Source of the DNA: a virus
Virus record (IMG/VR): IMGVR_UViG_3300038620_000086
Span: 8,841-72,840 of that record
Direction: 5' to 3' (one strand)
Length of the DNA: 64,000 nt
Part shown: one piece after another, positions 1 to 41,199 of the stretch
How the letters are laid out: every line of letters starts with the position of its first letter
Numbering within the stretch: the first letter of the stretch is position 1
The notes under the pieces: generated by a model
Seen by the model: the letters and a program-made list of their open reading frames with translations, nothing else
Databases searched by the model: none
Told to the model about the DNA's origin: nothing
Made by a program: the position numbers and the translations under genes

Positions 1-2728
1 TAAGGTCAGTAACTGGTCTTCCCTGGTTTACTGATTCTTCTATGCTTAACTGAGTTATTTCTCTGTCCAGTTCACTAACTTCCTTGGAGGTTCGGTAAAG
101 TTTTTCTAGCTGTTTAATCTCCTGATCAGGGTCACTTATAAACCGACCGATTTGCATATAGATTTGTTCATAAGTCATTAGGAGGTCTTCTAGACCCCGA
201 CCAATTAGATCAGCTAGAGAAGCCTCTCTACTCATATCAACATTTGCGGCTTCTCGAACCGCTGGGATCCAATAAAGTAGGTTGGCAGGTACGTTTTGAG
301 ATACATCTTCCCAACGCTTAGCCATCTCTTGAATCCGGCGGCTGCCAACGCCAGAAACCCTGATCGTTCCATCTTGAGTAATAGCAACGTGAGGTTCTCT
401 ACCAACTTCACGTTGAAGAGTTGCTAGGGCACTTTCGACCTTATCTTTGTTTCCGGCGGATACAGTTGTTATAACCCCTCCCAGTACATTTTCTATAACG
501 TGCGACTGGAACCGACGAGCAATTCCTTGGAGTTTAACTAAGCTGAGGGAACTAGATTCGCTAGCAGTTCCTCCCTTAACGTCAAGACCAACATAGAGAT
601 TCTGAATTATCCCCATCAAGGGGTTTTTGCTTTCTCGGACGATTTGCCGGTTAAGTTCGTCCTCCATATGAGCTGAGGCTAGAGACAAACCTCTGAACAA
701 ACCGTAGCTTAAGAAAGAGGCAGATATAGCAGACACCGTCTCGGCTATTCCACCAAGACCTTTTTCAAATGGACCTGCGGGAAGCTCTTCAGGGTCATAA
801 TATTGACGGTCAGCAAATCCAGGAGAAGACTCGTAAAAACCCTCCCTCCTTCGCTGTTGTTCTTGGTAGTAGTAGTGAGCTGTGGCACGATCAAGTAGGT
901 GTCCTAACGTTGCCACTCCTCCTTCTAAAAAAGTTTCATCTTTCTCGAAGGCGGGGGAACGAAGTACATTAGGAAAAGATTGGTGAAGAAAACGATTCAA
1001 TCTTTCTTTAAATGGAACTCGGTTAAGATCCTCATTTAATTGCTCATCTTCAAAAGGAGTGACCTTAGGTAGCGTTGGTGCCCCTCGAAACTGACTATAA
1101 AATGACGCTGGTAGCTCAGAAGGAATTTTTACTTCTTCTTTCAGATAGTGCCTAGAACCTTCAACCGGTTTAGGAAGAGCGCGGATCGTTTTAACGCTGT
1201 AGACTGAAGGGTGATCATACTCCCCGCTTCCATAGTCAACCGAATCAACATCACCAATTTCGTTGGATCCTGACTTAATAGTGGTTGGTACAGACCTATC
1301 TAATCTTTCTACTGAAACGTTATCTAAAGAGTCTAGCTTTCCTATTAAGTTCTGATGCTCCCCGTAAGTTTGCTGTACAATGGACATTAGTTTCCGAATG
1401 CTCTTAGGATCCATCTCTGTGGTAATCCTCAATGCCATTTCTTCGTGAGATTCTCCAACAAACCGACGGGTTGTTAGATAAGCAACATCAGTTCCTTTCT
1501 CGTTAATGTCTTCAACGAAATAAAGGTTGTAGTGAGGTGTATCAGTCTTGGTACGATCTGGTTTTAGGAATTCTGCTCCGGCTCTTTCTAGGCGACTAAC
1601 GATCCTTTGTGTAGCCTCTTCGGGATCAACGTCTTTAGTTGCAATAGTAACGTCAGAACCAGTTCTTTCCTTAGCCTCTAGTAGCCCGACTATTTCCCGA
1701 AAATGCTCTTTTGCTTGTAGGTCTTTCTTAGATGGATCTTTACGATCCTCCATCTCATTATACTGGAAGGACGCAGTCGCAATTGTTACGTCTCCACTGG
1801 AACGCCTAATGTCCTCTTTTAGAGACTCAAATATGACGTTTCCGCCGCCTTTTACAATATCACCTTCATAAGACCTGTCCCTTTTCCCTTCAGCTTCCCT
1901 TTCGATCTGATTGTAATATTCTTCTACTTCTTTATGAACCTTAGGATGGGTTGTGTGGTAATATATATCAGTTGTTTGCTTCGCCATCGACTCACCTTTT
2001 TGGTTAGTTCCAAATGGTTGAGTTACAAAGAAGGTATGTTCTTCTCCTCCTTTTTCACCGATGATAAACTTGGAGTGAAGCAAACGAGGCTGAGATCCCC
2101 CTCCTTCGGTCAGTTCTCTCCCTTCGTAAGGTTTAAAGTTGCCGCCTTTACTATTCTGAAACTCTATGGCATTGCGTTTAACATTAACCTCAGTTGGTTC
2201 AAAGTTAGTAACGTCAACAATGACCTCGGCGTCGGATGACCGTAGAAAGTCCGCCTCTGTTTGTGTTCCAAAGATCGACGTCGTCCACCAATTTCTAATA
2301 GAACCAAATGGTCCAATTTTCTGCTCCTTCTTACTTTGAGATTCAAAACTATATTCCACCTTTGTTTTAGCTCTAGGATCAGCAATAAACTGAACAGCTT
2401 TTATATTCTCAAGATCACCTGTTAACTCTTTTACCTTCTCCGGAGTAGTGATCCCAGCTTCGACATGAGAGGCACTTCCCTCAAACTTTAGATTAGACCT
2501 CCATTGTTGGTCTTCAACATGGGAAAACCTCTTTCCCAATGCAACCCGAATTTCTTGATCCGAGTTCCGAGCTTGACTTGCCACTCTAGAGATTAATTTT
2601 TCTGTGTAGTGGCTTTCCTTAGAAAGAGATATATTAACTGTCTCGCCAGAAGACAAGATGTCATCCTCTTGTTCTGTATACTGGCGATACCATTGTGGAG
2701 CCTTAGTTTCAAATCCAACGGGAGCCAT
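1..2728 (-). CDS. Large protein, 3'-truncated by window edge (>=909 aa); degenerate PLD/HKD-like segments; candidate virion/ejection or tape-measure-type protein
   Basis: Not in ORF track. I translated the minus strand from ATG 2728 (MAPVGFETKAPQWYRQY...) to position 1 with no stop. It overlaps the upstream gene's stop by 20 nt. Contains LHSKFIIGE (2077-2054) and a PLD-like run (IRRSSGDVTIATASF...RLERAGAEF...PHYNLYFVE). Confidence 0.85.
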   Translation of the reverse strand, partial: MAPVGFETKAPQWYRQYTEQEDDILSSGETVNISLSKESHYTEKLISRVASQARNSDQEIRVALGKRFSHVEDQQWRSNLKFEGSASHVEAGITTPEKVKELTGDLENIKAVQFIADPRAKTKVEYSFESQSKKEQKIGPFGSIRNWWTTSIFGTQTEADFLRSSDAEVIVDVTNFEPTEVNVKRNAIEFQNSKGGNFKPYEGRELTEGGGSQPRLLHSKFIIGEKGGEEHTFFVTQPFGTNQKGESMAKQTTDIYYHTTHPKVHKEVEEYYNQIEREAEGKRDRSYEGDIVKGGGNVIFESLKEDIRRSSGDVTIATASFQYNEMEDRKDPSKKDLQAKEHFREIVGLLEAKERTGSDVTIATKDVDPEEATQRIVSRLERAGAEFLKPDRTKTDTPHYNLYFVEDINEKGTDVAYLTTRRFVGESHEEMALRITTEMDPKSIRKLMSIVQQTYGEHQNLIGKLDSLDNVSVERLDRSVPTTIKSGSNEIGDVDSVDYGSGEYDHPSVYSVKTIRALPKPVEGSRHYLKEEVKIPSELPASFYSQFRGAPTLPKVTPFEDEQLNEDLNRVPFKERLNRFLHQSFPNVLRSPAFEKDETFLEGGVATLGHLLDRATAHYYYQEQQRRREGFYESSPGFADRQYYDPEELPAGPFEKGLGGIAETVSAISASFLSYGLFRGLSLASAHMEDELNRQIVRESKNPLMGIIQNLYVGLDVKGGTASESSSLSLVKLQGIARRFQSHVIENVLGGVITTVSAGNKDKVESALATLQREVGREPHVAITQDGTIRVSGVGSRRIQEMAKRWEDVSQNVPANLLYWIPAVREAANVDMSREASLADLIGRGLEDLLMTYEQIYMQIGRFISDPDQEIKQLEKLYRTSKEVSELDREITQLSIEESVNQGRPVTDL

Positions 2729-3527: not shown

Positions 3528-5295
3528 AATATCCTCCTTTTCTTCGTCTTTGTAAGTAGTCTAATCGGGACTTTCCTCTTTCTAAGAAAGAGGGATCAGA
3601 TCCTAAGAGTGAGGGGTCAAAGTTTTTATTGTCGGGCTGGTCTTCAGATTTCACCGACGATGCAGATACAACCCTTGGAATGTCATCTGAGTTCTCATCT
3701 CCAGTTAAATGCCAGACCACTGAAGCGATCCCATCTGCTAAGTCTTTACTCCCATTCTTCGGGTGGTCGATTCGTGTATTGTTAATCAACTCTAGCTGGT
3801 TAAGCTCATCTTTAGCCAGTTCTTTAACCGGCGAATCCTTAGGTAAAATGACCCTACCCTCATTCAGCATCGTTTGAAGCTGTTCGTAGATCATTAGCTG
3901 AAACTTGCCGCCGAAAAACTTTGCCTCAGCGTTAATGCCCCACTGTCTAATGCGTTGGATAGTCTCGGCATTCTGGTGATGGTCAGACGTCACCTTAAAG
4001 ATTGGTCGATGTTGGTGAATGTCAAATAAACATTCCTGAACGTTACTAATAGATACTTGATAGCCTGGGTCGGGTTGCCATGCCATAAGGACATCAATGG
4101 TAACGACTCTCAAGCCCTCTTCATTTCTCTCGGCATGACCAACTACTAAAGAGTAGGCATCTCGAACAACAGCAGGGTCAATATGGGCAATAGAAGGGGT
4201 ATCAGATTCAGTAACCTGTTTAATCCTTTTCTTAATTAGACCGCCCTTAGGCTCTTCGTCAGAATAGGTTACTTTAGAACGACCCCGGAAGCTCAACCTA
4301 ATGCTGTCAGGGTTTAAAAAGCGGGTTTGTGGGGTAATCCGCTTTCCTTCAAACTCCAGAGCTGCTTTTAAAGGGTTCAGAGAATACTCACTTCGAACAA
4401 CCGGGTTATCTCTAGCAGCGTGTTTAGGGTTGATATCCCAACTTTTTAGGCGAAAGCCAATAAAAGAGCTTTCATCTTCGGCAACCTTTTCATAAAGTTG
4501 TTCGATAGCATCTCCTGGTTCCCAAGCCGAACTTATAGCAACCCTCTTCGCTTCTGACCCAAACGTCATACCACTCAAACCTACGTTGCTCCAAAGGTTC
4601 TGAGCGTTGCTATTCCCCTCAGAGTCAACGGCGAACCTAGCCACCTCGTCCATCACCATGCAGATAACGTTCTGTCCGACTTGGCTAGAGCTTTCGCTGT
4701 TTCCAGGATAAATATGGACATTTTTCTCTTCATGGTCAATTGACTCTTTTCTTACAAAAACTTCACCTCTATCTATCATCCGTCTTAGTGGGCGGACTAG
4801 AGGGATCAAACCTCTAACATAAGAAAAGATCGTTTGCTTCGTCTGAGTAGCTGTCGTCGCGATCGCTAACAGTGAAATAGGAGAGTTCCCAGCTATACCA
4901 TAGTGCCCCTGTGGGTTATCCATCATAACTAGCTTTAGGAATTCATAAGCCAATATAATGGAAGCAAGATTACTTTTACCTCCACGCCTCCCTGCTTCTA
5001 AAATGAGTCCCTGATATTCTTTGTCAGGATCCATTGGATCCCAAGTCGTTTTCTGATCGTAGCGCCACCTCTCAAGTATTTCTCTATCACCTTTATCTAG
5101 CTTGGCTCCATAAAGCACTTTTAGAACTAACAACTGTTCCTTACAAAGCTCAATCCCCCATTTCTCCTGATCAATCTCATTTTCGACGAAATTAACAATA
5201 TCGGTATTTAAACCCCAAGAAGAGGATGACTTGATACTAAAGGCTAAATCTTGGAAGAAGTTCGACTCGTCTATTGATTCCTGCTGTTTTGCCAT
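3508..5295 (-). CDS. terL: Terminase large subunit
   Basis: Walker A (AGRRGGKS), Walker B (CMVMDEVARF), coupling motif (AISSA), RNase H-like nuclease aspartates (AHIDPA, VTSDHHQ, SKDLADG). Confidence 0.93.
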   Translation of the reverse strand: MAKQQESIDESNFFQDLAFSIKSSSSWGLNTDIVNFVENEIDQEKWGIELCKEQLLVLKVLYGAKLDKGDREILERWRYDQKTTWDPMDPDKEYQGLILEAGRRGGKSNLASIILAYEFLKLVMMDNPQGHYGIAGNSPISLLAIATTATQTKQTIFSYVRGLIPLVRPLRRMIDRGEVFVRKESIDHEEKNVHIYPGNSESSSQVGQNVICMVMDEVARFAVDSEGNSNAQNLWSNVGLSGMTFGSEAKRVAISSAWEPGDAIEQLYEKVAEDESSFIGFRLKSWDINPKHAARDNPVVRSEYSLNPLKAALEFEGKRITPQTRFLNPDSIRLSFRGRSKVTYSDEEPKGGLIKKRIKQVTESDTPSIAHIDPAVVRDAYSLVVGHAERNEEGLRVVTIDVLMAWQPDPGYQVSISNVQECLFDIHQHRPIFKVTSDHHQNAETIQRIRQWGINAEAKFFGGKFQLMIYEQLQTMLNEGRVILPKDSPVKELAKDELNQLELINNTRIDHPKNGSKDLADGIASVVWHLTGDENSDDIPRVVSASSVKSEDQPDNKNFDPSLLGSDPSFLERGKSRLDYLQRRRKGGYFGQDPY

Positions 5296-6195
5296 TTATG
5301 CCTGTCCAATTAACTTCACAGCTTCCAGCCAATAGTTCAATTCAACCGAACGGTCTAAAGATTCCACGACCAACTCTGCAAGGGAGTTAAAGTTATCTAG
5401 ATCCAGCCGGTTGGAAGGAGTGCTAGATAAAGTAAAGTCTGAGATAGACATCCTTAGCCCCTCGTTAGGGAGTAGGGTATCCCCAACGACTGTGCTGTCA
5501 GTGTTCCTAACAAAATAGTTGTTTCCAGAATCTAATGTGATCGGGAAGGATTCTGTCCAAAATGGTTGAGTCGTTCCTACTAAGTTTTCCTTAAGAAGAT
5601 CCACTTCAAGTTGGTTCGGCAATGACCGGTTATTTCCAGTAACCACTTCAATTTGGTAGCTAATAATCCGAGCATTTCCCAAAAATCCTGGAGGATAGAC
5701 TGAAAAGGAATCACCGTTAAACAGCTTTCGATAGCCAGAGATGACATACCGACTAAGATTGTCTAAGAGGTCACCAGAGATACTCCCCCTACGGGAGTCA
5801 GCGATTTGTATCTGTGCCGAACCCTGGATGGTATTTACATTACTAATTCTCCGAGCGTCATCAAGAACTGAAGGATCATTATCTGGATCCTCTCCGGATA
5901 ATAAGAAGTAAAGAAGCTCATTTTCTACAGATTTAACTGCTGGTTGACTCGCTTGAAACGCACTAGCGGTTATCTGAGAAAGAGTTGTTCCTTCAGGGAA
6001 TACCCTTTCGAGGTTGTTATCTACAATATATAAGACATCCCCAGGTCTAGCATCAATTAGCCTTGGGTCATCGGGGCTCACCGGTTGATGAGAATGACTG
6101 TTGTACTTAATAAAAGCGTCTTCTACATCATCTACGGAGTCATCCCCAAATAGCGAACTTGAAAAAGTAACTTGATGACTTGACTGGACACTCAA
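5296..6195 (-). CDS. Hypothetical protein (299 aa), TTG start, abuts terL
   Basis: GGGAG 8 nt upstream of TTG; stop directly adjacent to the terL ATG. Confidence 0.75.
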   Translation of the reverse strand: MSVQSSHQVTFSSSLFGDDSVDDVEDAFIKYNSHSHQPVSPDDPRLIDARPGDVLYIVDNNLERVFPEGTTLSQITASAFQASQPAVKSVENELLYFLLSGEDPDNDPSVLDDARRISNVNTIQGSAQIQIADSRRGSISGDLLDNLSRYVISGYRKLFNGDSFSVYPPGFLGNARIISYQIEVVTGNNRSLPNQLEVDLLKENLVGTTQPFWTESFPITLDSGNNYFVRNTDSTVVGDTLLPNEGLRMSISDFTLSSTPSNRLDLDNFNSLAELVVESLDRSVELNYWLEAVKLIGQA

Positions 6196-6200
6196 AATGC

Positions 6201-6248
6201 AATCTCCCAGCTCTACTAGTTCAATTCTCTCTTGAGAGCTGGAAGATT
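6201..6248 (-). promoter_or_regulatory. 14-bp RNA stem-loop that sequesters the Shine-Dalgarno of the 299-aa gene
   Basis: Minus-strand transcript AAUCUUCCAGCUCU (6248-6235) pairs with AGAGCUGGGAGAUU (6214-6201) with a single U-G wobble; the 3' arm contains GGGAG (6208-6204). Confidence 0.6.
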
Positions 6249-6267
6249 ACGTTTCAATCTTTTTTCT

Positions 6268-7158
6268 TCAATCGCTTATCGAGTATCCAAACAGCATAAT
6301 ATCTCCGACAACGCTGCTACCACCACTAGAAGGTTGTAGGACTTCTATGTAAAGGTGATTGTTATTAGTTTCAAAGGCAGAACCCGCAAAGAAATAATGA
6401 GAGAGAACAGAATTAGACGTATAAGTTCCTGGGACTAAAGTAAAGTCTTCAGTCCTATTGTAGGTTGATCCATCATACCAACCAAACCGATAAACTGTAT
6501 CTGTTGGCTGGTTTCCATCAGCTTCGTCTCTAACGAAGAAATCTAGATGATGTGGAACAAACCAATCTAAAATAGTCGGACGGAATAAAACTAGTGGTCC
6601 TTCTGAAACAGTAGAGATATCGACAGATCGGATTCGAGCCTTCAGACTGATCTGAGAAGGACCACCCGCTGTCGGTATGTATTTCCAATGACCATTGTCT
6701 GGGTTGTCCTGTATAGGAATCTTATAGTAACTATCATCTGCTAAAGGAATAGTATCTAAGCGGTCAGCTTGATAAAGACCGCCATATCCATCCCCTACTT
6801 CGTTACGACCTAATACTAGGGCATACTGGTCATGTCCCCTATCGGTAGGTGGCAGGTATGTTCTTAATACTTGGTTAGCGTTTTCGTTACCTTCTTCATC
6901 GGTTGACAAAGGGAGAACTAAGGGGTAACGTCCTCTATCGTCTAGTAAAACGCGATCATTACGGTCAAGAATACGATGGGATCCATCGCTGTGAGAGAGT
7001 CTTACGTCGGTTCTAAGACGCTCGTTAAGAACGGGATTAGCTGATGACCCGTCATGAACGACGATTGTATCGAGGCTAGTGCTATATGTAACTTCTCCCT
7101 CAAGCCCCGAAAAGTTGTCATAATTAGAGATCCGCCTAAACTGAAACTCTAGTGGCAT
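6268..7158 (-). CDS. Fibre/receptor-binding-type virion protein with Mtd_N/hyaluronidase-N-like N-terminal domain
   Basis: N-terminus FQFRR...FSGLEGEVTYSTSLDTIVVHDG matches the QxRR...GE...DT.....HDG pattern of phage fibre N-termini. Confidence 0.65.
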   Translation of the reverse strand: MPLEFQFRRISNYDNFSGLEGEVTYSTSLDTIVVHDGSSANPVLNERLRTDVRLSHSDGSHRILDRNDRVLLDDRGRYPLVLPLSTDEEGNENANQVLRTYLPPTDRGHDQYALVLGRNEVGDGYGGLYQADRLDTIPLADDSYYKIPIQDNPDNGHWKYIPTAGGPSQISLKARIRSVDISTVSEGPLVLFRPTILDWFVPHHLDFFVRDEADGNQPTDTVYRFGWYDGSTYNRTEDFTLVPGTYTSNSVLSHYFFAGSAFETNNNHLYIEVLQPSSGGSSVVGDIMLFGYSISD

Positions 7159-7539
7159 TTATGTCTCCTTTATTTCCAAGTCATATGCTTTAACAACAAG
7201 GGACTTCCCAGGTGATACCCTTTTTCCGGAGTCATTTACCACAGCACCCCAATAGGTAGCTTTGTCTCCTTTGGGGTCTTGCCACAATACGAAATAACGG
7301 ACGTTGACGTCTTTGTTGCCATTATTAACTAAGGTTAACTCAGTCTTATTATAGGAAGATTCACCATCGGTATCCCAATCTGAGAACTCTATAAAGCTTC
7401 CTTTATCCCACTCGACTGGTGTTGGCTGAGTTGACTCTGGGTCAGATCCTGGATCCTTTTCATAAAAGGCAATGTAAACAGGATTGTCAACGAAAACGTT
7501 GGTTTGAAGTCGGTTTTGGAATCCGTCTGTTTTTGGCAT
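7159..7539 (-). CDS. Small virion/tail-associated protein (126 aa), paralog of 33774..34175
   Basis: Pattern YIAFYEKDPG...N...VRYFVLWQDP.G.....G......V.PG....K..DLEI shared with the 133-aa ORF; resembles a widespread small phage structural family. Confidence 0.7.
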   Translation of the reverse strand: MPKTDGFQNRLQTNVFVDNPVYIAFYEKDPGSDPESTQPTPVEWDKGSFIEFSDWDTDGESSYNKTELTLVNNGNKDVNVRYFVLWQDPKGDKATYWGAVVNDSGKRVSPGKSLVVKAYDLEIKET

Positions 7540-7545
7540 AGTTAG

Positions 7546-7821
7546 TTATAAAGGCGATAGGTAGCAATAAATCTGACCAGCATTCATGGAAGATCCATTT
7601 AGAATCTTCTTCACTGCGATTGGATAGATACGACCTGTTTCAACAGGAAGAGTACGAGTTTTACCACTGAAGGTTTCAAATTCGAGGCTTCCTCCAGATG
7701 TTACCTCGATGCCCATTACCATCGGCGGGAGGTTTTGGTTGAATCCTACCTCATTCAATGGGAAAACATCGTAAAAAGGAGAAGTATTTCGAGAGATTTG
7801 GGATGAGTAGTTATTTACCAT
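7546..7821 (-). CDS. Head-spike base protein-like (RcGTA Rcc01079 family-like), 91 aa
   Basis: NLPPMVMGIEVTSGGSLEF...GKTRTLPVETGRIYPIAVKKI...AGQIY resembles the L...RALYVG.GG.V...G...TF.V.AG..LPI.V.RV pattern, and the size fits that family. Confidence 0.55.
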   Translation of the reverse strand: MVNNYSSQISRNTSPFYDVFPLNEVGFNQNLPPMVMGIEVTSGGSLEFETFSGKTRTLPVETGRIYPIAVKKILNGSSMNAGQIYCYLSPL

Positions 7822-7828
7822 GCTAAGA

Positions 7829-7845
7829 TGACGAACGGTTCGTCA
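7829..7845. repeat. Dispersed palindrome copy 1 (TGACGAAC-G-GTTCGTCA), intergenic
   Basis: Perfect 8-1-8 palindrome between the cpcA-like stop and the spike-base-like start. Confidence 0.85.
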
Positions 7846-7851
7846 GAGTAT

Positions 7852-9666
7852 CTACAAACTAGATCGGATATATTCAATAAATTCAACCGCCTTATCTTTC
7901 TGATCGGCTTGTGTAACAGTAAAAGAAACAGAGGTGTCAGAAGGCATTGTCTCCGTCTCATCGGGAAGAAAATAATCCTGAGGGTTATTCTCTAACTCCT
8001 CACGAAGCCATCTTAAAGCTTCTTTATACCATTTGGGGTCAAGCCCAAACGTTTCATTAACCTCCTTTAGCTCATCTAAGAACAGCTTATCAAGAAGACC
8101 GGTGTCATTGGCAACAAGTCCATAAGTTAAGTACCGAACATAATATTCGATATCACGGATACATTTACTTATCTGCGTTCCATTGTAGGAAAAAGGTTCT
8201 CTTTGGAACGGACTGTCTTCAGGCGGACGGTTGTCAGGAATCATGACAGTCTCATATCCCTCCGTCTTCTTAACTGCTTGTCCTCCTTTATCTGACTCTA
8301 GTATTTGGAGGATCATATCTAAATAGACGTGGACGGCACTAACTACATCCATACAACTATCAGCCGCAGGAGTGATGTCATATTTAGACAGGTCGATGGG
8401 AGAATTGTCTATTATGGCATCTCCCTGAATAACCTTAACTAAACGACTACGAAAGCCTTCTTTACCATCTCCTCCGTTAAAGGCTTTTTTATAGTTCTCG
8501 ACTATCTCCTCGTAACTTGGAGTACCACTCTTATTAGCTTGGTCAAGCAAAGCCTGTCTAGATTGAACCGCATAGTCATGAACTCTATCATTGCCGGTAT
8601 GTTTTAGATTGTAGGCGATCGCGTCTAGGAAAAACTTAAGATCCCGCGGGTACCTAGAAGGGTCATAAGTGGAGGTATCAGAGGTGACGACTGGAGGAGT
8701 CGCTATCCAACCTTTTAGCCCTACGTTACCGTTTCCATCATCGTAAGTGTTACTATCACTTTCGGTTATTAACTTGGCTGCATCAGCTAAACGACCTTCA
8801 CCAATGCCCTGGTCTCCATAAGGATTAGAACGTCTGGCTAAACTTCCTGCCCCTTTGTCTATAACGTCTAATATGAGATCAAGAAAAGTATCAGCAGTAG
8901 CTATAACACTTACGAAGCGGTCACCATAGGTTATATCTGGATCCTGCTTAGCCGATCCGTCTAAGACCATACGAAGGCGGTCACGGACTCCCTCATCTGT
9001 ATTCGATCCATTGCTCGTTCCGTTAATGGCAAGCTCATAGTTAATAACAATCGTTGAAAAGCTAGGACCGCTCTCATTACTTTGTTTCTGCAACGCATTT
9101 CTAGAGATCATGGCATAGTCATAAACTTGACTATTCCCACCCTCTACGATGTTGTACGCGATCGCTTCCAAGAAGAATTCAATGTCGCGGATACACTTCT
9201 CTTGGATGCTTGAGAGGTCATCTCTATTAACAACTGAGGGAGCACTGGCAATCCAGTTCTTATTGGTCAGAATGAGATTCCGAGCATCTTCTTTTCGATT
9301 GCGATGCTTATCTCCTACAAGCTCATAGAATCCGACTTTTCTGGGTTCATCAGGACGATCAAACTGAACACCAAAGATTTCTTGTCCACCGTAGTAAGGG
9401 TTTCCAGAAAGGGTTCTTGGAAAAGTAGAGTAAACACTGTTAGTTGCCTGCTCTACTAAATGGCTACTATGATTTGATATTGATTCAGCAGCCATAAGAG
9501 CAGCTAACCCATCTTTATAAGACCATTGGTCGTTAGCGGTGGGATCACTTGAGGAAGAGGACGAGTTGAACCGTTTGTTGGCAGTTATTAGATCATCATC
9601 CCTTATCTCTCTTAAATTTTGGCTATCGATTAATAGCGCTACTTCAGTAAGCTTTGATAAAGTCAT
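7852..9666 (-). CDS. Phycocyanin alpha (CpcA)-like protein split by two internal phycobiliprotein-like repeats (604 aa)
   Basis: N-term SKLTEVALLIDSQ...AALMAAESISNHSSHLVEQATNSVYSTFP aligns with CpcA TPLTEAVAAADSQ...ASLEAAKAL...LVNGAAQAVYNKFP. C-term SKCIRDIEYYVRYLTYGLVANDTGLLDKLFLDELKEVNETFGLDPKWYKEALRWL...AVEFIEYIRSSL aligns with CpcA [54 protein letters not shown]...EANSYLDYAINAL. C502 equals alpha-Cys84. Confidence 0.85.
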   Translation of the reverse strand: MTLSKLTEVALLIDSQNLREIRDDDLITANKRFNSSSSSSDPTANDQWSYKDGLAALMAAESISNHSSHLVEQATNSVYSTFPRTLSGNPYYGGQEIFGVQFDRPDEPRKVGFYELVGDKHRNRKEDARNLILTNKNWIASAPSVVNRDDLSSIQEKCIRDIEFFLEAIAYNIVEGGNSQVYDYAMISRNALQKQSNESGPSFSTIVINYELAINGTSNGSNTDEGVRDRLRMVLDGSAKQDPDITYGDRFVSVIATADTFLDLILDVIDKGAGSLARRSNPYGDQGIGEGRLADAAKLITESDSNTYDDGNGNVGLKGWIATPPVVTSDTSTYDPSRYPRDLKFFLDAIAYNLKHTGNDRVHDYAVQSRQALLDQANKSGTPSYEEIVENYKKAFNGGDGKEGFRSRLVKVIQGDAIIDNSPIDLSKYDITPAADSCMDVVSAVHVYLDMILQILESDKGGQAVKKTEGYETVMIPDNRPPEDSPFQREPFSYNGTQISKCIRDIEYYVRYLTYGLVANDTGLLDKLFLDELKEVNETFGLDPKWYKEALRWLREELENNPQDYFLPDETETMPSDTSVSFTVTQADQKDKAVEFIEYIRSSL

Positions 9667-10262
9667 ACTCCGTCTCGGGCAATGTCAAAGTAGGTTTTCA
9701 ACTCTGAATAGAGATCAGAACAGTTGGGAAGAGAGCCACCATATTCACTAGCAGGACTAACTGACCATTTATAAGGATCCTCCCAACCGCTAGGATTGTC
9801 TCCTTTTTCGTGGTCAAGGTATTTTATTGCTTCCTCCCACATATTCTCTACACTCTCTGCTACATACTCTCTTGGGGTTCCCAAAGATTTATAGGTTTCT
9901 TTTAAGCCGTCAAGACATCTAATGGTCAAGATACTGGGATCTCCGCACAGAAAGCTAAGGGTAACATACTTCAAGAGAAAGTCCATATCCCGAATACAAG
10001 CTTGATTACGCCGGTTCGGGTAGGCATTTCCTCCTGGTAGCACTAAATGAGGACGGTCTCTAAATAGCTTTCTAGCTGCATTTAAGACAATGTCATCAGT
10101 CTTATCCCTTAACCGACGAACAATATCAAATCGGCGGTTTTTCTCCCTCATAATCTCTTTAAGCTTAGAAAAGACTTCAGGCTTTATGTACTGCCCCCTC
10201 TGGTCAGCTTGCATAACAGCCCTCGTATAAGCATCATGAATAAAATCTCTAGGTTCAGACAT
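9663..10262 (-). CDS. cpcB: Phycocyanin beta (CpcB)-like phycobiliprotein (199 aa)
   Basis: DAYTRAVMQADQRG, IVLNAARKLF, PGGNAYPNRRNQACIRDMDFLLKYVT, GDPSILTIRCLDGLKETYKSLGTP and NCSDLYSELKTYFD are collinear with CpcB. N79 (methylated beta-Asn72), C89 (beta-Cys82/84) and C181 (beta-Cys153/155) are retained. Confidence 0.9.
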   Translation of the reverse strand: MSEPRDFIHDAYTRAVMQADQRGQYIKPEVFSKLKEIMREKNRRFDIVRRLRDKTDDIVLNAARKLFRDRPHLVLPGGNAYPNRRNQACIRDMDFLLKYVTLSFLCGDPSILTIRCLDGLKETYKSLGTPREYVAESVENMWEEAIKYLDHEKGDNPSGWEDPYKWSVSPASEYGGSLPNCSDLYSELKTYFDIARDGV

Positions 10263-10989
10263 TTATTCTAAAACTCCCTTCCTGTAGCTGTTGTTCAAAC
10301 ATTTTCTTGACTTCCTCAGGTAAGTCACAACGTTGGGAAAGATCATCCAGGCTTTCATAATCTCCTTTTTCCCTCTCCTCTATAATTCGGGCAGCCAACG
10401 TTGAGTCTACGTTTGGGAAACGATCATAGCTTAGTTGAGCAGAATCCACGAGGTTCAGAGTCGCAACACTATATTTTCGGTTCCAGAACTCTTCATAGGA
10501 TATTTCAGGGGCTAACAGTGACATCAACTGCCTAAGAGGAACTTTCCTTGAACTAAGTATCAAAGAACTAGCCTTTTCTCTATCAGCGGGGTCAGGAATT
10601 ATCTCGGTAAATCGCTGCCAATATCCCACAATAGCTTTCAACAGGTCATATGAATTTTTATAGGGATATGTTCCATCCCAGCGTTGGTAGTTTTGAAGAT
10701 TCTTAGAAGAAAACTGACTCTTCACTAAGTTCCTATCGTCAGAATCCAGATTGTATAAAGCCCCTTTTGCTTTGAAAATGAGCTTAGTTACCCAACAAAC
10801 TGATCGGTGAGCAGACTCTGGAAAGTAGATGCACCAACCATAAGAAGACTCGTCTAGAAGGTGGGGAAAATAGCCAAATACCTTTTTAGAACGAACTCCT
10901 TGGTCAAAAGGCTCTGGGAAGGTTATTCTAAGGCATTCTTGGTTCAGTAAAGATGCCGTCTTTCCATCAGGTACAACATAATATAACAT
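10255..10989 (-). CDS. Hypothetical protein with C-terminal helix-hairpin-helix (ComEA/PsbU-like fold) domain
   Basis: LNL...FPNVDSTLAARIIEEREKGDYESLDDL matches the HHH_3/ComEA pattern; overlaps the cpcB-like start by 8 nt. Confidence 0.6.
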   Translation of the reverse strand: MLYYVVPDGKTASLLNQECLRITFPEPFDQGVRSKKVFGYFPHLLDESSYGWCIYFPESAHRSVCWVTKLIFKAKGALYNLDSDDRNLVKSQFSSKNLQNYQRWDGTYPYKNSYDLLKAIVGYWQRFTEIIPDPADREKASSLILSSRKVPLRQLMSLLAPEISYEEFWNRKYSVATLNLVDSAQLSYDRFPNVDSTLAARIIEEREKGDYESLDDLSQRCDLPEEVKKMFEQQLQEGSFRINV

Positions 10990-10992
10990 AAG

Positions 10993-11205
10993 CTACTGGA
11001 CTACTTTAACAACGCCGTTGGAGTCCTGATACCAATCACCGGGGACTAATCCACCCGTTTTAGCCGCAGAGTCATCAGCGTATTGAGGAAGGCTAAGACT
11101 AATTGGACTGCCATCCTCAATTTCTTGTAATCCCTCTACACTACCATCATCGCTGAGCTTTATTGTGATTAGCCGCATTGTACTACTGGGATTGAATGGG
11201 TCCAA
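10993..11205 (-). CDS. Small virion protein (70 aa) with fibre-tip-like motif
   Basis: LPQYADDSAAKTGGLVPGDWYQDSNGVVKVV resembles a motif common at phage fibre C-termini; fills the gap between two genes. Confidence 0.55.
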   Translation of the reverse strand: MDPFNPSSTMRLITIKLSDDGSVEGLQEIEDGSPISLSLPQYADDSAAKTGGLVPGDWYQDSNGVVKVVQ

Positions 11206-14200
11206 TGTCTATTCTACCGTTTGTAAGTCGGCTGTTACCAATCATATCCTTCTGTAGAACTTCAGGATCTATGTCGAACTGGTTAGAATTGGACACTCCA
11301 CCGTGGATCCCATCGATGTAAGAATATACATCACCTGGTATAAGATTAGGATCACCAGACTCGATCAAGGGACTTTCTTCTTTCGGCTTGAGAATATTAC
11401 CATACTGAGACCCACCGGAAAATAGGTAATAGCTTTTATCTTCTTTCTCTATAGAAATTGTTTCTTCCTCTAAAAGACTAGAAAGGTTACCGACTTCAAT
11501 AGGAGAGACTGGAGTTTCAATAGTGGGATCTCCACGTTCGTACACAAACTCTGTAGACATATTATCATCCTCCTCGTAAAAGTTAGGAGCAATTAATCTC
11601 ACAGTCTCATCCGAACTTAATTGAAGATTCTGGCTAGTTGCTGTATTTCCGATATAGAAAGTATGTCGGTCGGTTCTAAACGTTCCTTTCATCGACTCCG
11701 TACCTGCAAATAAGCAATTGAAGATGAAGTTACTCGAATCACTATCATAATGATGACCTAAAGATACTTTGTTTGGAAATAAACAGTTATAGAGGAAGAG
11801 AGCACAATCGTTAAGTCCCCCGGCAATATCCCCACTCTCAATGTAAGAGTTGATTAGAATTAAATAGGATCTAGATCCTACAAAAAACCCTGCATTACGC
11901 CTGCCACCAATACTATCAGGTATTCGACAATTTATTAAGACTACAATGCTATCTTCTCCAAAGTTAGTGATTCCTGTTCCTTTACTATAACTACCATCAT
12001 TACTTCTACCCTCTTTAAGAGTAAGGTTTTCGAGGAATAGACTAGACTCTCCTGGAGACGTTCCCCGAAAGATGTGGAAATCTCTAACTTCGGAAGAGCG
12101 CTCAATAGTCGCACCAAACTTTTTAGGTGCAACTATCTTAATTCCTTGTTTTACTTCTATTTCTCTCTCAACTATTATGTGCTCTGCAACAACCAGAATA
12201 GTTGACATATTCTCTGCATTCTCTACAACCTGTTTTAGTTGTCTCCCATTAAAAGCAACGTGATCAAAGTCAATTCCGAGAGCAGAAGCTAGAAGATCCC
12301 TTACTCGAAAATTTCGCCCCATCAACAGAAACTCTGGGACTTGATCAGTAGGAGTTCTAGTGTTTAATCCGTAAAGTTGAGAGAAGTAATCTTGGAGAAA
12401 TAGTGGTTGATTAGGAATTCTATAGTCTGTAGAGAGAATTCCATATATACTTCCTCGGAAGGAAGTACCTACATTAGGGGTAAACTGGTTCTTAACAGAT
12501 TCAGCCCCTCTAGCATCAATTTCATAGCGATCCTTATTAACTATTAGAGCAGGTCGCCTAATATCAGCAGTATCAATGCTAAATAGGTTGTCATTCGGCT
12601 TTGGAAATTCTACTGTTCTTCTCCAAACTCGTTCGTCGTTGAGATGGAGTTTTCTAACTTCACTCGGCCAATAGTCGAATCCAAAACTTGTCGAATCTAG
12701 TATATAAAGCTCATTTGATATAGAAGCTAACTTATAATAGTTACTATCTGGTTTCCTACCATCTTGTGTGCGGACTTTACGCCGAGAACCAAATAATCCA
12801 TAGTCCTCCCAATAACCTTCTTTTTGAGGATTGTCTTTATCAGGTTTGTATTTCTGAAGGATTCCTAGATCCTCTACCTCCGGCGTTCTGTTCACAGAAA
12901 GCCGATAAAGAGATCCGTTATGGAATTCTAAGATCCTACCTCCTAAAGGTTCTTCCCCAATATTAGTTTCTACTTCAGTGAATCCAGATGAAGGGTCTGT
13001 CGAATAGTATAGAAAAGGACTCTGAGGACCCCATTCGACTCCATATCTACCTCTATCTTCTCCGCTTGGCTGTATCCAAAGTTGAGGTTCTCCTTTTTCT
13101 AGTTCGGGAACATCACCAATAGCAAATGATAGGTATTCTACGCCGGTATCATTATTTCTTTCTATAGAGAAGACTTCGTTCTTGTTCTCATCATACAACC
13201 TGTACATCCTCGTATCTGAGTTGTATTGAAGGAAGTAGATATACCCCTTATAGACAACTGCACCAATAATGCCTTTATTGAGATTATCTAGGCTATATAA
13301 CTCCATTAGGTCATGATTGATCCCATTCCACCCTCTTTCATCTCTATCAGCAGTTAGAAGCGCAAATTCTAAGTCATTAGAACGCTTCCATACATAATAT
13401 ATTCTAGTCCCCTCCGTATTTTTAAAGAAGTGATCTCTTACGAGCCAAAATACAACGGGATACTGACCATCTATATCTGGAGTTTGGTCAGCATAATAAA
13501 GTTTAGGATTATAGAGATTGAAATAGTTGTCTACAAACTGCCCATAGTGACTATCTTCTTCTTCCTCATTATCCTCTCCTGGGTAATAGAATATATCAAG
13601 CTTTAGAAGATTTCCTCCCTGGAAGAAAAGCAATCCAGCTTTATCTATATCCCAACGGTAATATCGAACTGCCGCTCCAAAGCTAAATTTAGGTCCTTCA
13701 TTCTGAATAATGGCATCTTGTACGCCTTCATCATGGTTGTAATATTTGATTCTACAGTTAGTTCTATGCTGGTGACTCTCTGTAAAGTACAAGTGACCCT
13801 TCCAGGGAATTAAGTTATTATGTTTGACATGACTAAAGCTACCAGCAGCATTGAATGGAATTTGGACTAGTTGTTCACTATTGTTTTGGCGACTACTTGA
13901 GTTCCATCTCCAAAGCTCTGTATCATAGTTATTATCAACAAGAATATAAATCTCCTCACCATTCCCAGAACCATCCTCAAATACAGTAATATAGTGAGGT
14001 TCTCTATTTCCAGAAAAACTAGCTCTCTGTTGGAAATTAGTACCAGATGGATCATCCATAGAGTATAACCTCTGCTCACTTGCAGAAACAGTCCAAATTT
14101 CATTATCAGAGGTGCGGACAGAAGAAACAGGTCTATCTATATAAGGATGCTCTGGTTGTTCATAATACCAACCTCCAGCATAACCCCCATGCAAAATTCT

Positions 14201-17200
14201 TAACTTATCTTCACTCTCCCCGTAATAAGCTATATATTCCCACTGATTGTTCCTACCCTCTGAGTTAAAGTTATTAGGGTTCACTTCACTGAACCGATAG
14301 ATACCTTTTCCATAGTTTCCGTCACCTTTTTCATCGCTCTTTCCCTGTTCGAGATGTTCATTAAAACTGTCTCCTCCATAATACCGCCACATTTTAATAT
14401 CGGTTTCTTCATCCCAGATGCCTATCCAGCAGTCCTGATTAGCTAAGATGTCAGATATATGTCCCATGCCAGCAGGTTTATTTGCTCTTACAAAGAATCC
14501 TTGACCAATACCCCACTGAGGTGTCGGCATATGATAAAGCTCCTGGGTTGCCCTATCAAGAGCGACCAGTCCTATATCAGCGTGTACGATAACAGGGTCA
14601 AATAGGTCTGTCCCTCGCTCCAAAGCCCAACTTTCTCCATCAGAAGTCGAGAAGATAAACCCATCGTTAGAAGCTGCATAAAGTTTATTGTTAAAACCAC
14701 TTATCTCAAAAGAAGCTACTCGTCTATAGTTACCTCTTGGTAATTCAGATCCTTCTACGGGATATCTTTTGGTTGCCAGGTTTAAGGCTATACTCCAGTG
14801 AATACCGTCAAAATAGAGAACATAGGAAGCAGATTTTATAAGATTATCTTCTTGGTTAGACCCAACAAAAAGAGTGCCCTTAAACTCTTTCAGAGGCTCA
14901 CCGATTTGGTAGGTAGGAACAAATCTGTCTCCAGCAGGTGTATATCCCCGACCCCACCAAGCTTCTTCAGACCAAGCAAAGTAAAGGTCTCCATCATGAT
15001 TATGACATAGTGTATAGAAGATGTAATTGGGGTTTATACCTTTTTCTGTCCTTTCAACGTCTTCTGGGGGATCGATAACTTGTATACGATAAGGATGATC
15101 GACTTCATATCTATCCTTAGTAAACCATTCTGTATCTGTTTTATTATCTATTGCATATACATAGTTACGACCAACAACATATAGTCTTTCATCTTCTTTT
15201 TCACCGGCAGTAGCAAAGTTTATCGGGTATTCTCCAGGAAAAGAATCCTCTGAAAAGTTGTTTTCGTTAAGTTCATAGTCATACCGGAATACCTTGTTGC
15301 TCCAACTGCAAGCTATATGAAGAATCTGAGTTAGTGGTGAAAAGTAAAGACCTCTAGGAGACGAGTTTTCTCCCAGTTGGCTAGAATCAAACTCTACTCT
15401 CCAATCTTCTGGATCCATATCACCGTTACTAGTGATAGCTCCATCATAACGCCATATTTCGTCGCTACCAGAGCAAGAAACAAGCAAATAAGTATTACCG
15501 CCCTCACTTACTTCTACAATTTCAGAGGGCTTATTGCCAACCTGTACAAAACTCCAACCATCAGTTGGATTATACCGACCTACTTCATCAGAGCCTTGAA
15601 AAGTAACATATAAAGATTCAGCACCATTATCTGTAAAAACTATCATTCTATGAGGATGTAGATGATCAGTCCACGTAAAGTCCTTATTTGGTCCCTCAAT
15701 GACAGAAACTTTGTTGCTTCGACTGTAGCAGCAGTAAAGATCCCCATCATACTTCATAAGGTCTAAAGGTCTGTCACCATTATTCTCAGTATGCACTTTC
15801 CATTTCTTTGGAGAGCCTTCATATCGCCAGACCTGACTTTTATCTGCTAAAGTCAGATAGAGTTGCCCATTGTATTTATAGAGGCAAGTTGGTTTGTCCT
15901 TTGTTCCTGTCATAGAGAAGAATCCATTAACTTCTCCTCTCCAAGTAAGCTCTAAAGTTTCATCTTCGTAGTCTAAAGAGTAGGGCTCAGTATCGATTAT
16001 TCTTTGAATAGATCGGTCGGAGTTATCAATATCTAATCCTAGTGTCAACAGGTCTGACCGGAACACACTATTGTCTTGAGCGGGCGGTAAGTTAAATTCC
16101 TTAGAGGTTCCTTGCAGAGGGTCTTGAGGTTGAAGGTAGGTAGTTAGGTCACCAGTCTGGTTTTGTGTAGCGTTGCTCCAACCAGATATACTATCTTCAA
16201 AGGTTTCTTTTAAAAGGAGCCTTTGAGCCCCATCACTAATTTCTAAGTTGTCTATCCCAAACGTTCTTCCGGGGTCAGACTTAATGCTGACTTGAAAGAC
16301 CTGCTGATAGGGGAATTCAATAGATATCCGGTAGTAGTCCTCCTCAACTTTTTCTATGAGCCATTCTTTTTCTCCGAGACTTCCGGAAGATGTAGAAGTG
16401 ATATTTAATAGTTCAGAGTAAATTATGGGGTCACTTCCATCAAGCTCTAGGACAAATCTTGTATCAGCCCAATTTCCCAGAAGATAAACATCAAACTTAA
16501 GTTCAACTGATAACTGAAGATCTAAGGTTTGGGTTTCCTCAAAGTTGATCCGGTTTGTGTCTAAATAGCTAGGTTTTATGTCTTGGTCTTTTTGAGTCAG
16601 GATCGCCGATGATTTTATGTCCTGCCAGCGTTCGATTCCGGAAGTCGATAGAATTACACTGCTAGCTGATGTGGCATTAAACCAGTTTTTAAGTGAATCT
16701 TCAAGGCTGAATAGGTTCCATGATGTATCTATGAAAGCCGAAGATAGATTATCTACACATGACCCGAGGTCTAGTTGGTCAGCACTGGCTGAAAATATAA
16801 CCCTTACCAGTATCCGCTCCTGGTAACAGAGAACAAAGTTCTCCACCTTGGCTACAACTGCTGAAAGCTCTGAGGAGTAATATAAATCCTCTGCTATTCC
16901 ATATTTAGGAGAGATGGTAATGCTGTCGAGTAGCTTTCCATTGTCGAAAATAAGAACCTCATTTCTAAGAAGTTGAGAGCTAATAGAGGGTTTGGTTAAA
17001 CAGTATAAATAGCCGTCCCTCATCGAAACATCTATTCCGATAGGAACACGATCAGCAGCTTTGTTTGTGCCTCCCAAAGACTCAATTGGATAACGGCTAA
17101 TAGGAAACTCTCTAACCAGATTGCCTTTCAGGGAAAATTCCGCGATTGTTTGCCTGGTTAGGTTGGTAGCAACAACAAGTTCTCTGATACTATCATACGC

Positions 17201-39761: not shown

Positions 39762-41199
39762 TTTGAGCCTCCATAATAGCAGAGTGGAACGATAAATCTT
39801 TTAAATCTTCAAGTGATCTAATTGGATCAGGTGTAACAACAAACGTATAACTGCTATCTACTTCCAGCGCAACCGATAAAATCTCATTTTTATCAGTAAT
39901 AGAGATAGGAATAGGATCTATCTTCCGAGATCCTTCACATAGATATCCTTCCACCGAGTCACCAATAGATCGAAATTCAATCTTAGCCTTATCTCTTACA
40001 ACACTAGGAACAGAAAGGATAACTAAAGGCTTTCCTTTTGGGGGACGAAGTGTTTTCCCAAATTTGGGAAGTTTGAGTTCTCTATCAGTTAGCCTTAACC
40101 AGCTTTCTTTATTTGGGTCTTTCCGGTAAGCTTTGTAATAAGATACAAGCCTATCAACATATTGACGGCTCGGATCTAACGTTAAAATGGAAGAACTGTT
40201 ATAAAGGGCGTCATGAATGAATGTTAGGTAGCCATAAAGCAGCTCTACATCCTTGTCACTCAAGTTGTCTTCCCACTCAGATAACGGTTGATACTTGTTT
40301 GAAGAAGAATCAACAAAAGTGGCAAGAAGAATGTAAGCATCAACAATTAGAGCTTGAAGTACAGTATCTATTCCAGCAGGAGGAGATAGTCTGAGAAACT
40401 TGGTTAGCTGTTTAACTATCCATTCTGCGTCCACTGATAAGAGTCCTCTACCAGCAGCAGTTTTGAAAACCGATATTAGCGGTGATCTGACCTGAATCCT
40501 AGGAATTCTCCACGCCAAGTTTGTCACTTCTCCTCGGAGAATCCCCGAACTAAGTAAGCGTTGTTTGAGGTCAAAGTTAGGGTCACCAACATCAAGGTCA
40601 TACAGTGCTGCTAACTCCCCTTGTACCTTTTCGGCAATATCTAAAGAATATCCCATCCTCCTCAAAAGAGTATCATACTTCCTTTCTAATGGTGTTTTGT
40701 GTAAGTCCAGTGATCGCCAAAATGTCTCTTGTTGACGTTTTATAATTGATATGACATCAGTGTCGGAGGGGATAGGATCTCGATTCAATAGAGAAAAGGC
40801 AACAGATCCTAGAAACCCGGCGTAGTAATAGTCCCGATAATCCTTATTTTCGTGCCAGAAGGCGGAGAAGTCATGACCTTTCCAGTAGGTTAGGGCTGCT
40901 GGTGTTAGCTCTTGGGCTTTTCCCCTACGATATTGGCAGTTAACTAGCGAATGAACTACTGCTTGGTTTATTGCCAAATCACGAAGGTTAACTGCTAGCT
41001 TCTCTTTAGATTCCCAGTAGGAGTTAAAGAATGCTTCCCCTAGCTTCCTATAATGCCGTTCAGCACGTTGCAAGTTATTACTTTGCCTCTTCCAGAAACG
41101 AGTTTTCTCTTCATCCCAGCTACCTGAGGCATGAAGTTCAGGAGGGATAGGAAGATGCGCTTTGTACTCACCCTTAATCTGGTCTGGTAGTCGTTTCAT
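39730..41199 (-). CDS. Hypothetical protein (489 aa)
   Basis: Long ORF overlapping both neighbours; no motif recognised. Confidence 0.7.
   Translation of the reverse strand: MKRLPDQIKGEYKAHLPIPPELHASGSWDEEKTRFWKRQSNNLQRAERHYRKLGEAFFNSYWESKEKLAVNLRDLAINQAVVHSLVNCQYRRGKAQELTPAALTYWKGHDFSAFWHENKDYRDYYYAGFLGSVAFSLLNRDPIPSDTDVISIIKRQQETFWRSLDLHKTPLERKYDTLLRRMGYSLDIAEKVQGELAALYDLDVGDPNFDLKQRLLSSGILRGEVTNLAWRIPRIQVRSPLISVFKTAAGRGLLSVDAEWIVKQLTKFLRLSPPAGIDTVLQALIVDAYILLATFVDSSSNKYQPLSEWEDNLSDKDVELLYGYLTFIHDALYNSSSILTLDPSRQYVDRLVSYYKAYRKDPNKESWLRLTDRELKLPKFGKTLRPPKGKPLVILSVPSVVRDKAKIEFRSIGDSVEGYLCEGSRKIDPIPISITDKNEILSVALEVDSSYTFVVTPDPIRSLEDLKDLSFHSAIMEAQNVDSEPPYRL

Follow-up and report, generated by a model that had tools for sequence, protein, structure and literature searches.

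Architecture of the phycocyanin-like locus

The stretch of viral DNA analysed here (the window) comprises 64 kb, positions 8,841 to 72,840, of the 72.8-kb IMG/VR virus record IMGVR_UViG_3300038620_000086, the completeness of which is put at 38% by CheckV. On its minus strand lie two adjoining genes that resemble those of the phycocyanin subunits CpcB and CpcA, and the cpcA-like gene carries a long insertion with two repeats, predicted to be globin domains themselves. The features of this pair are the following:

9663..10262, minus strand: cpcB-like gene (P0002, 199 residues); its stop and the alpha-like start codon overlap; PF00502 at E 4.5e-41, CpcB in the PDB at E 1e-42
7852..9666, minus strand: cpcA-like gene with the nested insert (P0001, 604 residues plus stop), recognized by PF00502, by phmmer against the PDB and by full-length homologues
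9406..9666, minus strand: N-terminal half of the outer alpha domain, residues 1-87, with the X-Y hairpin, a Ser-rich extra loop of about 17 residues, helices A and B and the FPRTLS end of the B/E loop
8200..9405, minus strand: insertion of about 400 residues, residues 88-489, made up of a linker, Repeat 1, Repeat 2 and a second linker; it fills the gap between the CpcA-aligned segments
8812..9315, minus strand: Repeat 1 (R1), residues 118-285, predicted globin domain of phycobiliprotein fold without the X-Y hairpin
8257..8811, minus strand: Repeat 2 (R2), residues 286-470, predicted globin domain of phycobiliprotein fold
7855..8199, minus strand: C-terminal half of the outer alpha domain, residues 490-604, with helix E and its KCIRD Cys502 (8161..8163), helices F and G, a beta-hairpin insert of about 25 residues and helix H

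The outer protein is classed as a phycobiliprotein by its Pfam match, its predicted fold and its motif, yet it is not a CpcA equivalog. PF00502 is the sole Pfam family in the alpha-like protein (95.1 bits against a gathering score of 22.2, in three stretches), linker repeats of PF00427 are absent, and the NCBIfam model for the C-phycocyanin alpha equivalog, TIGR01338, gives 97.1 bits against a cut-off of 269.45. In the phmmer alignments to the PDB, residues 50-86 correspond to CpcA 31-67 and residues 490-556 to CpcA 72-138, the latter with 42-48% identity. Since the matching segments are split at about CpcA positions 67 and 72, the extra 400 residues or so interrupt the loop between helices B and E. 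An insertion of this size, with two repeats in it, had been proposed in the initial annotation of the sequence for 8293..9300 (residues 123-458 of the alpha-like protein), and it is borne out both by the alignment gap at residues 88-489 and by the comparison of R1 with R2, which are 41% identical over 160 columns (E 1e-28; hhalign probability 100%), a likeness that chance comes nowhere near explaining. The accompanying image of a Russian doll is apt insofar as the repeats lie inside the CpcA-type B/E loop, but they stand there in tandem and are not nested in one another.

The whole alpha-like protein contains three cysteines only: Cys158 of R1, Cys438 of R2 and Cys502 of the outer chromophore helix. 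R1 keeps the KCIRD cysteine that had been assigned to it (Cys158, 9193..9195), and its second-site cysteine is replaced by Phe251 (8914..8916). In R2 the first-site cysteine has given way to Tyr339 (8650..8652) with Arg341 and Asp342 kept, and hhalign sets Cys438 (8353..8355) on beta-Cys153, in keeping with the early suggestion that R2 lost the one cysteine and holds another at the second beta-type site.

Predicted fold of the repeats and of the outer domain

Structure prediction supports the view that R1 and R2 are globin domains of the phycobiliprotein type. In the whole-protein AlphaFold model, built from a 12-row alignment (predicted local distance difference test (pLDDT) 67, predicted template modelling score (pTM) 0.43), confidence is higher in the repeats than in the outer alpha segments, and the linkers at residues 84-97, 105-123 and 474-499 fall below a pLDDT of 50. 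VIA-align places R1 (model residues 111/115 to 270) on residues ~22-177 of cryptophyte, red-algal and cyanobacterial beta subunits at Z 13.4-14.4, with a root-mean-square deviation (rmsd) of 2.6-3.1 over 137-142 aligned residues. R2, modelled alone with the same 11 relatives, reached pLDDT 87.6 and pTM 0.87; of 48,161 representative chains, phycoerythrin beta matched it best (Z 13.2, rmsd 2.4, 140 aligned), followed by far-red allophycocyanin (Z 12.5) and the bilin domain of ApcE (Z 11.8; ApcE domains 10.1-11.8), with globin-coupled sensors, DosC and RsbR at about 10 and photocobilins at 8.6-9.3. Among the matches listed by Foldseek for R2 in the PDB there are only phycobiliproteins and one 'bacterial fluorescent protein' entry, at template modelling (TM) scores of about 0.5. 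The ESM Atlas entry of the alpha-like protein (model pLDDT 0.42) offered no usable feature match, all its structural neighbours having TM below 0.4.

Helical folds can reach a VIA-align Z of about 13 by arrangement alone, and the values of 13-14 obtained for the repeats lie within that range, which counts against leaning on the structural ranks by themselves; sequence evidence was therefore weighed too. A profile of 24 repeat sequences aligned by hhalign with 29 CpcA and CpcB sequences at a probability of 94.7% (E 6e-8, 93 columns) under -M first and of 85.1% under -M 50, with KCxRD set on Cys82/84, and reversed controls gave 0.2-0.4%. Over the same span, a comparison with beta sequences only (probability 10%, 90 columns) set the KC.RD motif on Cys82 and the IT..D.C..V motif on the beta-Cys153 segment.

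The initial annotation had left to modelling the question of whether the two separated halves form one alpha subunit. They do close into a single alpha domain with its X-Y hairpin in the predicted model, albeit at low local pLDDT: model residues from 26/29 to 604 superpose on alpha subunits at Z 14.5-15.8 (rmsd 3.1-3.3, 144-147 of about 162 residues aligned, 29% identity by VIA-align), with R-phycoerythrin alpha in first place (Z 15.8) and phycocyanin alpha at Z 14.5-15.3.

Conservation among relatives and the cysteine pattern

Eleven full-length relatives of the alpha-like protein, of 594-616 residues and 46-54% identity at 99-100% coverage, were found in a collection of 5.8 billion proteins, and the nested architecture is common to all of them in the 12-sequence alignment (A1). 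Only five columns of this alignment hold three or more cysteines, and all five are canonical bilin positions, namely the CxRD cysteines of R1, R2 and the outer alpha domain plus a second site (D.C.DV) in each repeat. Exactly those five cysteines occur in 9 of the 11 relatives. The three cysteines on which the initial annotation had settled, C158, C438 and C502, are thus all that the window copy has, but the family consensus is five sites. Cys502, Arg504 and Asp505 of the outer domain are present in 12 of 12 sequences, as are Cys158, Arg160 and Asp161 of R1; in the CxRD motif of R2 the cysteine is found in 11 of 12 (tyrosine in the window copy) and the arginine and aspartate in all 12. In phycobiliproteins the Arg and Asp of CxRD contact the bilin. 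Furthermore, mean pairwise identity is much the same across the four regions (outer N-terminal part 0.55, R1 0.60, R2 0.60, outer C-terminal part 0.61), and the insert is therefore under as much constraint as the phycocyanin core.

The beta-like partner

The beta-like protein keeps the GGNAY motif of Asn72 as well as both beta-type cysteines, with Cys89 (9996..9998) equivalent to beta-Cys82 and Cys181 (9720..9722) to beta-Cys153. It is about 40% identical to the CpcB of 16 metagenome loci, and it scores 160.2 bits on NCBIfam phycocy_beta (TIGR01339) against a cut-off of 279.3. Eight relatives (59-70% identity) retain PGGNAYPNRR..AC.RD, and none of the 9 sequences departs from C89, R91, D92 and C181. 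The subunit also shows an insertion of about 27 residues just before the Cys153 equivalent, and an extra invariant cysteine, Cys106, beside Cys116, which occupies the CpcB Cys109 position. For five of the eight beta relatives the longest contig is equal in size to that of an alpha relative (193383, 3669, 8264, 4551 and 26500), which is indirect evidence that the alpha and beta genes travel together.

The two proteins are predicted to pair as a protomer. Their modelled complex scored 0.70 (0.80, 0.62 and 0.70 in three runs) against 0.00 for the best of 3 controls, a mark reached by 58 of 80 solved complexes and by 2 of 110 mismatched pairs; as alpha-beta phycobiliprotein complexes have already been solved, such a score shows likeness and is not proof of binding. 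At least 65% of contacts recur between the runs, and the partner pLDDT is at least 71. The predicted interface, formed by alpha residues 1-67, 511-528 and 572-577 and beta residues 7-55, 95-115 and 166-175, looks like the canonical X-Y-helix interface, and the insert takes no part in it.

Kinship with the giant repeat proteins of cyanophage virions

The pattern of the two repeats had been likened, in the initial annotation, to that of giant virion proteins of T4-like cyanophages, and the homology of R1 and R2 to the KCxRD units of those proteins is borne out. PHROG 4527 ('short tail fiber protein', a profile of 3730 positions) matches residues 116-272 of the alpha-like protein at E 3.3e-11, and with PHROG 5342 ('tail fiber protein') the match has E 4.1e-7. 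Conversely, a hidden Markov model of the repeat found 7, 12 and 10 stretches, about 130-170 residues apart and around KCxRD motifs, in three giant proteins of 2364-2936 residues. Twenty-two units taken from those giants align with the nested repeats at an hhalign probability of 97.8% (E 1e-12, 115 columns; reversed controls 0.2%), whereas the same units compared directly with phycobiliproteins reach 79% over 27 columns only, which makes the nested repeats intermediate in sequence. On the three giants themselves Pfam found nothing above threshold, with PF00502 at 16.3 bits in one of them. The further proposal that this chimera joins the two protein families is upheld by the presence of CpcA sequence and KCxRD domains in one chain and by hhalign matches in both directions.

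A tblastn search with one of the three giants, P0015, matched 437 phage records, named for Synechococcus (346), 'Cyanophage' (51), Prochlorococcus (22), Marine (13), Xanthomonas (2) and three others (1 each). The annotations of the features hit read structural protein, short tail fibre or gp7 baseplate wedge initiator. Among the 40 matches listed, 29 lie wholly within residues 1033-2627, the span with 7 of the 9 KCxRD motifs of P0015, 4 exceed it, and 7 cover the N-terminal residues 22-407 only. The structural side agrees: the top matches of the R2 model in BFVD are tail and structural fragments of Synechococcus phages (TMq 0.45-0.61; 1 match at E<=0.001), the sources being S-CAM1, S-ShM2, S-H9-1, S-WAM2, Syn30, metaG-MbCM1, ACG-2014d and S-PM2.

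We also took a census of the domain with a profile of 7 sequences (R1 and R2 of the window plus five units of an IMG/VR contig, L005) against 1.84 billion cluster representatives. At E<=1e-3 it returned 1282 proteins, of which 869 reach 1e-10 and 446 reach 1e-30; the best 150 of the 1282 are almost all of 500-6400 residues and hold up to 39 stretches. The L005 protein (4171..16731, plus strand; 4187 residues) has 22 CxRD motifs, most of them 108-117 residues apart, and most of its units are shorter than the units of about 150-170 residues in the window. A neighbouring open reading frame (ORF) of 307 residues contains one degenerate unit without cysteine.

The virus and the surroundings of the pair

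Almost all long ORFs of the window lie on the minus strand. PHROG matches identify a major head protein, a maturation protease, three tail-sheath-like proteins, baseplate wedge proteins, a tail fibre and the large terminase subunit. The major head protein matches 10 deposited phage records only, at about 28% identity, all of them cyanophages (Microcystis 8, Microcoleus 1, 'Cyanophage' 1), and the terminase has its best matches in the same group, at 31.6% identity. Judged from these two proteins, the virus is a myovirus distantly related to the Ma-LMM01-type cyanophages and not T4-like. The cpcBA-like pair appears, from its neighbours, to sit in the late structural operon, where all genes point the same way. 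On its 5' side are ORFs of 4129, 70 and 244 residues, and on its 3' side come a spike-base gene, weak fibre-type ORFs and the terminase. The main features around the pair, with the tail-sheath matches, are these:

7546..7821, minus strand: spike-base protein of the RcGTA Rcc01079 family (91 residues; NCBIfam NF048002, 29.8 bits, cut-off 28), directly 3' of the cpcA-like gene
10255..10989, minus strand: ORF of 244 residues overlapping the cpcB-like start, with a C-terminal helix-hairpin-helix signal in which all matches, PsbU (E 0.007) included, are below cut-off
11183..23572, minus strand: giant ORF of 4129 residues without a PHROG match
2..2728 in the window, minus strand: giant ORF of at least 3868 residues with a match to phrog_29513, which continues to base 1 of the record and runs off the record start
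31282..33774, 41196..44966 and 47532..50708, minus strand: three ORFs (830, 1256 and 1058 residues) with tail-sheath PHROG matches, an unusual multiplicity

The spike-base gene next to the pair places it beside an appendage module, and the ORFs further 3' have sub-threshold Pfam matches of fibre type (Gp80, E 0.0018; Mtd_N, E 0.0013). The 244-residue ORF was considered as a lyase or linker candidate and rejected, having only the sub-threshold helix-hairpin-helix signal and nothing at E<0.01 in the PDB. The 30 bp that separate the cpcA-like stop from the start of the spike-base gene contain a perfect palindrome of 17 bp (7829..7845), which does not look like an intrinsic terminator because no T-run follows it; promoter and terminator scans around the pair gave no signal above shuffled controls. 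As to provenance, two sequencing runs contain at least half of the sampled sequence words; one of them may be the source of this DNA, and the other, with a share of 0.74, is labelled tidal flat metagenome. A third run has a small share, and none of the runs listed as containing this DNA is an RNA sequencing run.

Function of the pair and alternative explanations

The explanation that we favour, with slightly better than even confidence, is that the virus encodes a phycocyanin-derived beta/alpha pair, the alpha chain with two inserted KCxRD globins, which would act as a late, virion-associated and bilin-loaded appendage or decoration complex. An alpha subunit would have acquired two tandem KCxRD globin domains in its B/E loop; its outer halves would still fold as one alpha subunit and pair with the beta-like partner through the X-Y-helix interface, with the two inserted domains hanging off the alpha-beta protomer. 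The complex would be expressed late, its bilin being attached within the infected cyanobacterium by lyases of the host or, as is known of ApcE, autocatalytically, and the alpha-beta units may assemble into rings. Bilin sites would then number three on this alpha chain (five in relatives) and two on the beta chain, and the cysteine pattern is consistent with the up to three bilins per alpha chain that had been suggested at the outset. As the cysteines of a protein of some 600 residues are confined to the canonical attachment sites and are accompanied by the invariant Arg and Asp, the domains probably still take a host-supplied bilin; of all parts of the proposal, attachment is one in which we place reasonable, if limited, trust. 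Presence in the virion is a more tentative matter, to which we give not quite an even chance. The packing of the pair in the late operon, together with the occurrence of the repeat family otherwise in virion proteins, leads us to favour a virion-associated complex over an antenna role inside the cell, which we hold to be possible but rather doubtful.

Several observations weigh against the appendage explanation. On the side of the fold, and besides the caution on Z scores given above, the Foldseek E-values against the PDB are weak (best 0.025 for R2 and 0.04 for the whole protein, none <=0.001); R1 alone reaches 18.2 bits in Pfam where the cut-off is 22.2 (E 0.0026, PF00502 positions 73-104, the chromophore helix), and R2 alone has no Pfam match. 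The outer alpha domain is modelled with low local confidence (pLDDT below 50 at residues 1-46 and of 34-58 at residues 470-540), the model as a whole being mediocre. The window copy keeps three of the five sites, having F251 and Y339 where 11 of 11 relatives have cysteine. Apart from the alpha-like protein, no ORF of the record contains the KCxRD repeat, the two giant ORFs included, and genes for CpeT, CpeS, Fe_bilin_red or heme oxygenase are absent from the 72.8 kb of this 38% complete record. Photosynthesis genes of cyanophages may also sit among structural genes, so that position in the operon is no proof of incorporation into the virion. Lastly, the hallmarks of light harvesting are all kept, and an intracellular antenna role fits them equally well.

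Such a role is the strongest rival. According to it, which we consider a possibility of distinctly second rank, the pair is an auxiliary metabolic one that is never packaged: it would assemble into or cap the phycobilisome rods of the host, or compete for linkers, lyases and bilins, the extra chromophore domains serving as added antenna, quencher or blocker during infection. The preserved cpcB-cpcA order, the X-Y helices, GGNAY with Asn72, both beta cysteines and the alpha Cys-x-Arg-Asp speak for it, as does the predicted canonical interface. The nearest cultured relatives are, moreover, phages of the Ma-LMM01 type, which manipulate phycobilisomes via nblA, and the insertion lies in what is probably the same B/E loop in which ApcE has its PB-loop. 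One ApcE report describes a PB-loop of 50-70 extra residues that is tolerated and contacts photosystem II (PMC11789067), a further point for the intracellular role. However, the pair is only about 40-48% identical to cellular CpcB and CpcA, and both proteins score far below the NCBIfam equivalog cut-offs; the family of the inserted domains occurs otherwise in giant proteins of the virion type, and the ORFs that closely flank the pair are of fibre, spike and giant kind.

Rather unlikely, in our judgement, is a pigment-free scaffold, in which the phycobiliprotein fold and its capacity for self-assembly were co-opted and KCxRD was kept for folding or packing. The window copy does tolerate the loss of two cysteine sites, many units of the giant proteins are cut to about 110 residues without the second cysteine, and the fragment offers no lyase or bilin gene; yet cysteine is otherwise excluded from these roughly 600 residues and stands at every canonical attachment position, and all three motifs have the bilin-contacting Arg and Asp in 12 of 12 sequences, a pattern for which folding by itself would hardly account.

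The inserted globins might instead bind heme or another ligand as sensors, in the manner of globin-coupled sensors or RsbR, since the domains of globin-coupled sensors, DosC and RsbR/stressosome proteins rank after the phycobiliproteins at Z 8-10.3. We deem this very improbable: the phycobiliproteins rank first, the sequence motifs align to bilin sites, and the 12-sequence alpha alignment contains no invariant or nearly invariant histidine that could be the proximal one. An assembly chimera or a decaying pseudogene, to which the missing two of five conserved cysteines might point, can be dismissed almost entirely in view of the intact frame, the even constraint across regions and the 11 relatives of the same architecture and 99-100% coverage from several collections (lgn, ena, jgi, mgnify).

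Novelty and implications

The usual view of phycobiliproteins is that of cellular antennae in cyanobacteria, red algae and cryptophytes. New at this locus are a complete phage cpcBA-derived pair and a nested alpha chain of three globins; to our knowledge, three globin domains in one chain are unprecedented for the phycobiliprotein family. By tblastn, none of 50,697 deposited phage records matched the alpha-like protein (E 1e-5) or the beta-like protein (E 1e-2). Among IMG/VR viral contigs, a profile search with the alpha alignment retrieved a single locus, L005, which holds the giant repeat protein only and no cpcBA pair, and a search with the beta alignment retrieved none. The alpha alignment found 16 loci among metagenome contigs, all of them ordinary cyanobacterial cpcBA operons. 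A full-text literature search, from whose coverage subscription journals and supplements were excluded, yielded nothing on phage-encoded cpcBA or on phycobiliprotein-like domains in phage virion proteins.

The main gain is evolutionary. With unmistakable CpcA sequence and a virion-type KCxRD domain in one polypeptide, a remote similarity becomes a firm evolutionary link, and this link to phycobiliproteins takes in the whole domain family, with its more than 1,200 clusters of sequences. More speculative, and to our mind rather doubtful, is the thought that cyanophage particles carry covalent bilins, both in this complex and, by homology, in the KCxRD baseplate and fibre arrays of T4-like phages, chromophorylated in the cell and displayed on the virion; a link of the present phycobiliprotein variant to pigmented virions is plausible. 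If so, the particle would be pigmented, fluorescent or light-responsive. The bilin-synthesis and lyase genes of phages (ho1, pebS, pcyA, cpeT) have long been puzzling, and with such virions they would gain a phage-encoded substrate. Bilin binding, if true, would alter the view both of cyanophage virions, with possible light sensing or light-dependent adsorption, and of these genes. For work at the bench, the pair of 604 and 199 residues provides a compact substrate for bilin binding compared with a fibre of 3,000-6,000 residues.

Comparison with known systems

With the C-phycocyanin subunits CpcA and CpcB, the pair shares the beta-then-alpha order, the fold, the X-Y hairpin, the Cys-x-Arg-Asp helix, beta Cys82 and Cys153, GGNAY and the predicted alpha-beta interface. 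It differs in being phage-encoded, in its identity of about 40-48% to the cellular subunits and in scores below the NCBIfam equivalog cut-offs; its alpha chain of 604 residues carries smaller insertions and, in the B/E loop, two more globin domains, and its beta chain has the insertion of about 27 residues. The best structural matches of R1 and R2 are the beta subunits of cryptophyte and red-algal phycoerythrin (Z 13-14, residues ~22-184 aligned), from which the repeats differ in that sequence identity is as low as 12-18% and that they have no X-Y hairpin.

The homology of R1 and R2 to the KCxRD units of the giant proteins (PHROG 4527 and 5342) extends over almost the whole unit. The window protein has just two such units and no long tandem array, they lie inside a true phycocyanin alpha subunit, and the virus is a myovirus that is not T4-like. 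Furthermore, the sampled units of the giants lack the second cysteine of the beta-153 type, whereas the nested repeats of the window family mostly keep the second site.

The nearest precedent for an interrupted alpha domain is ApcE with its PB-loop, described as an insertion of 50-70 residues in an alpha-type domain (PMC11789067). There, too, an alpha-type phycobiliprotein domain is interrupted by an insertion that leaves assembly possible, and the bilin domains of ApcE rank high among the structures that resemble R2 (Z 10.1-11.8). The phage protein differs from this precedent in that it lacks PF00427 linker repeats and that its insert extends over about 400 residues and is itself predicted to consist of two folded globin domains.

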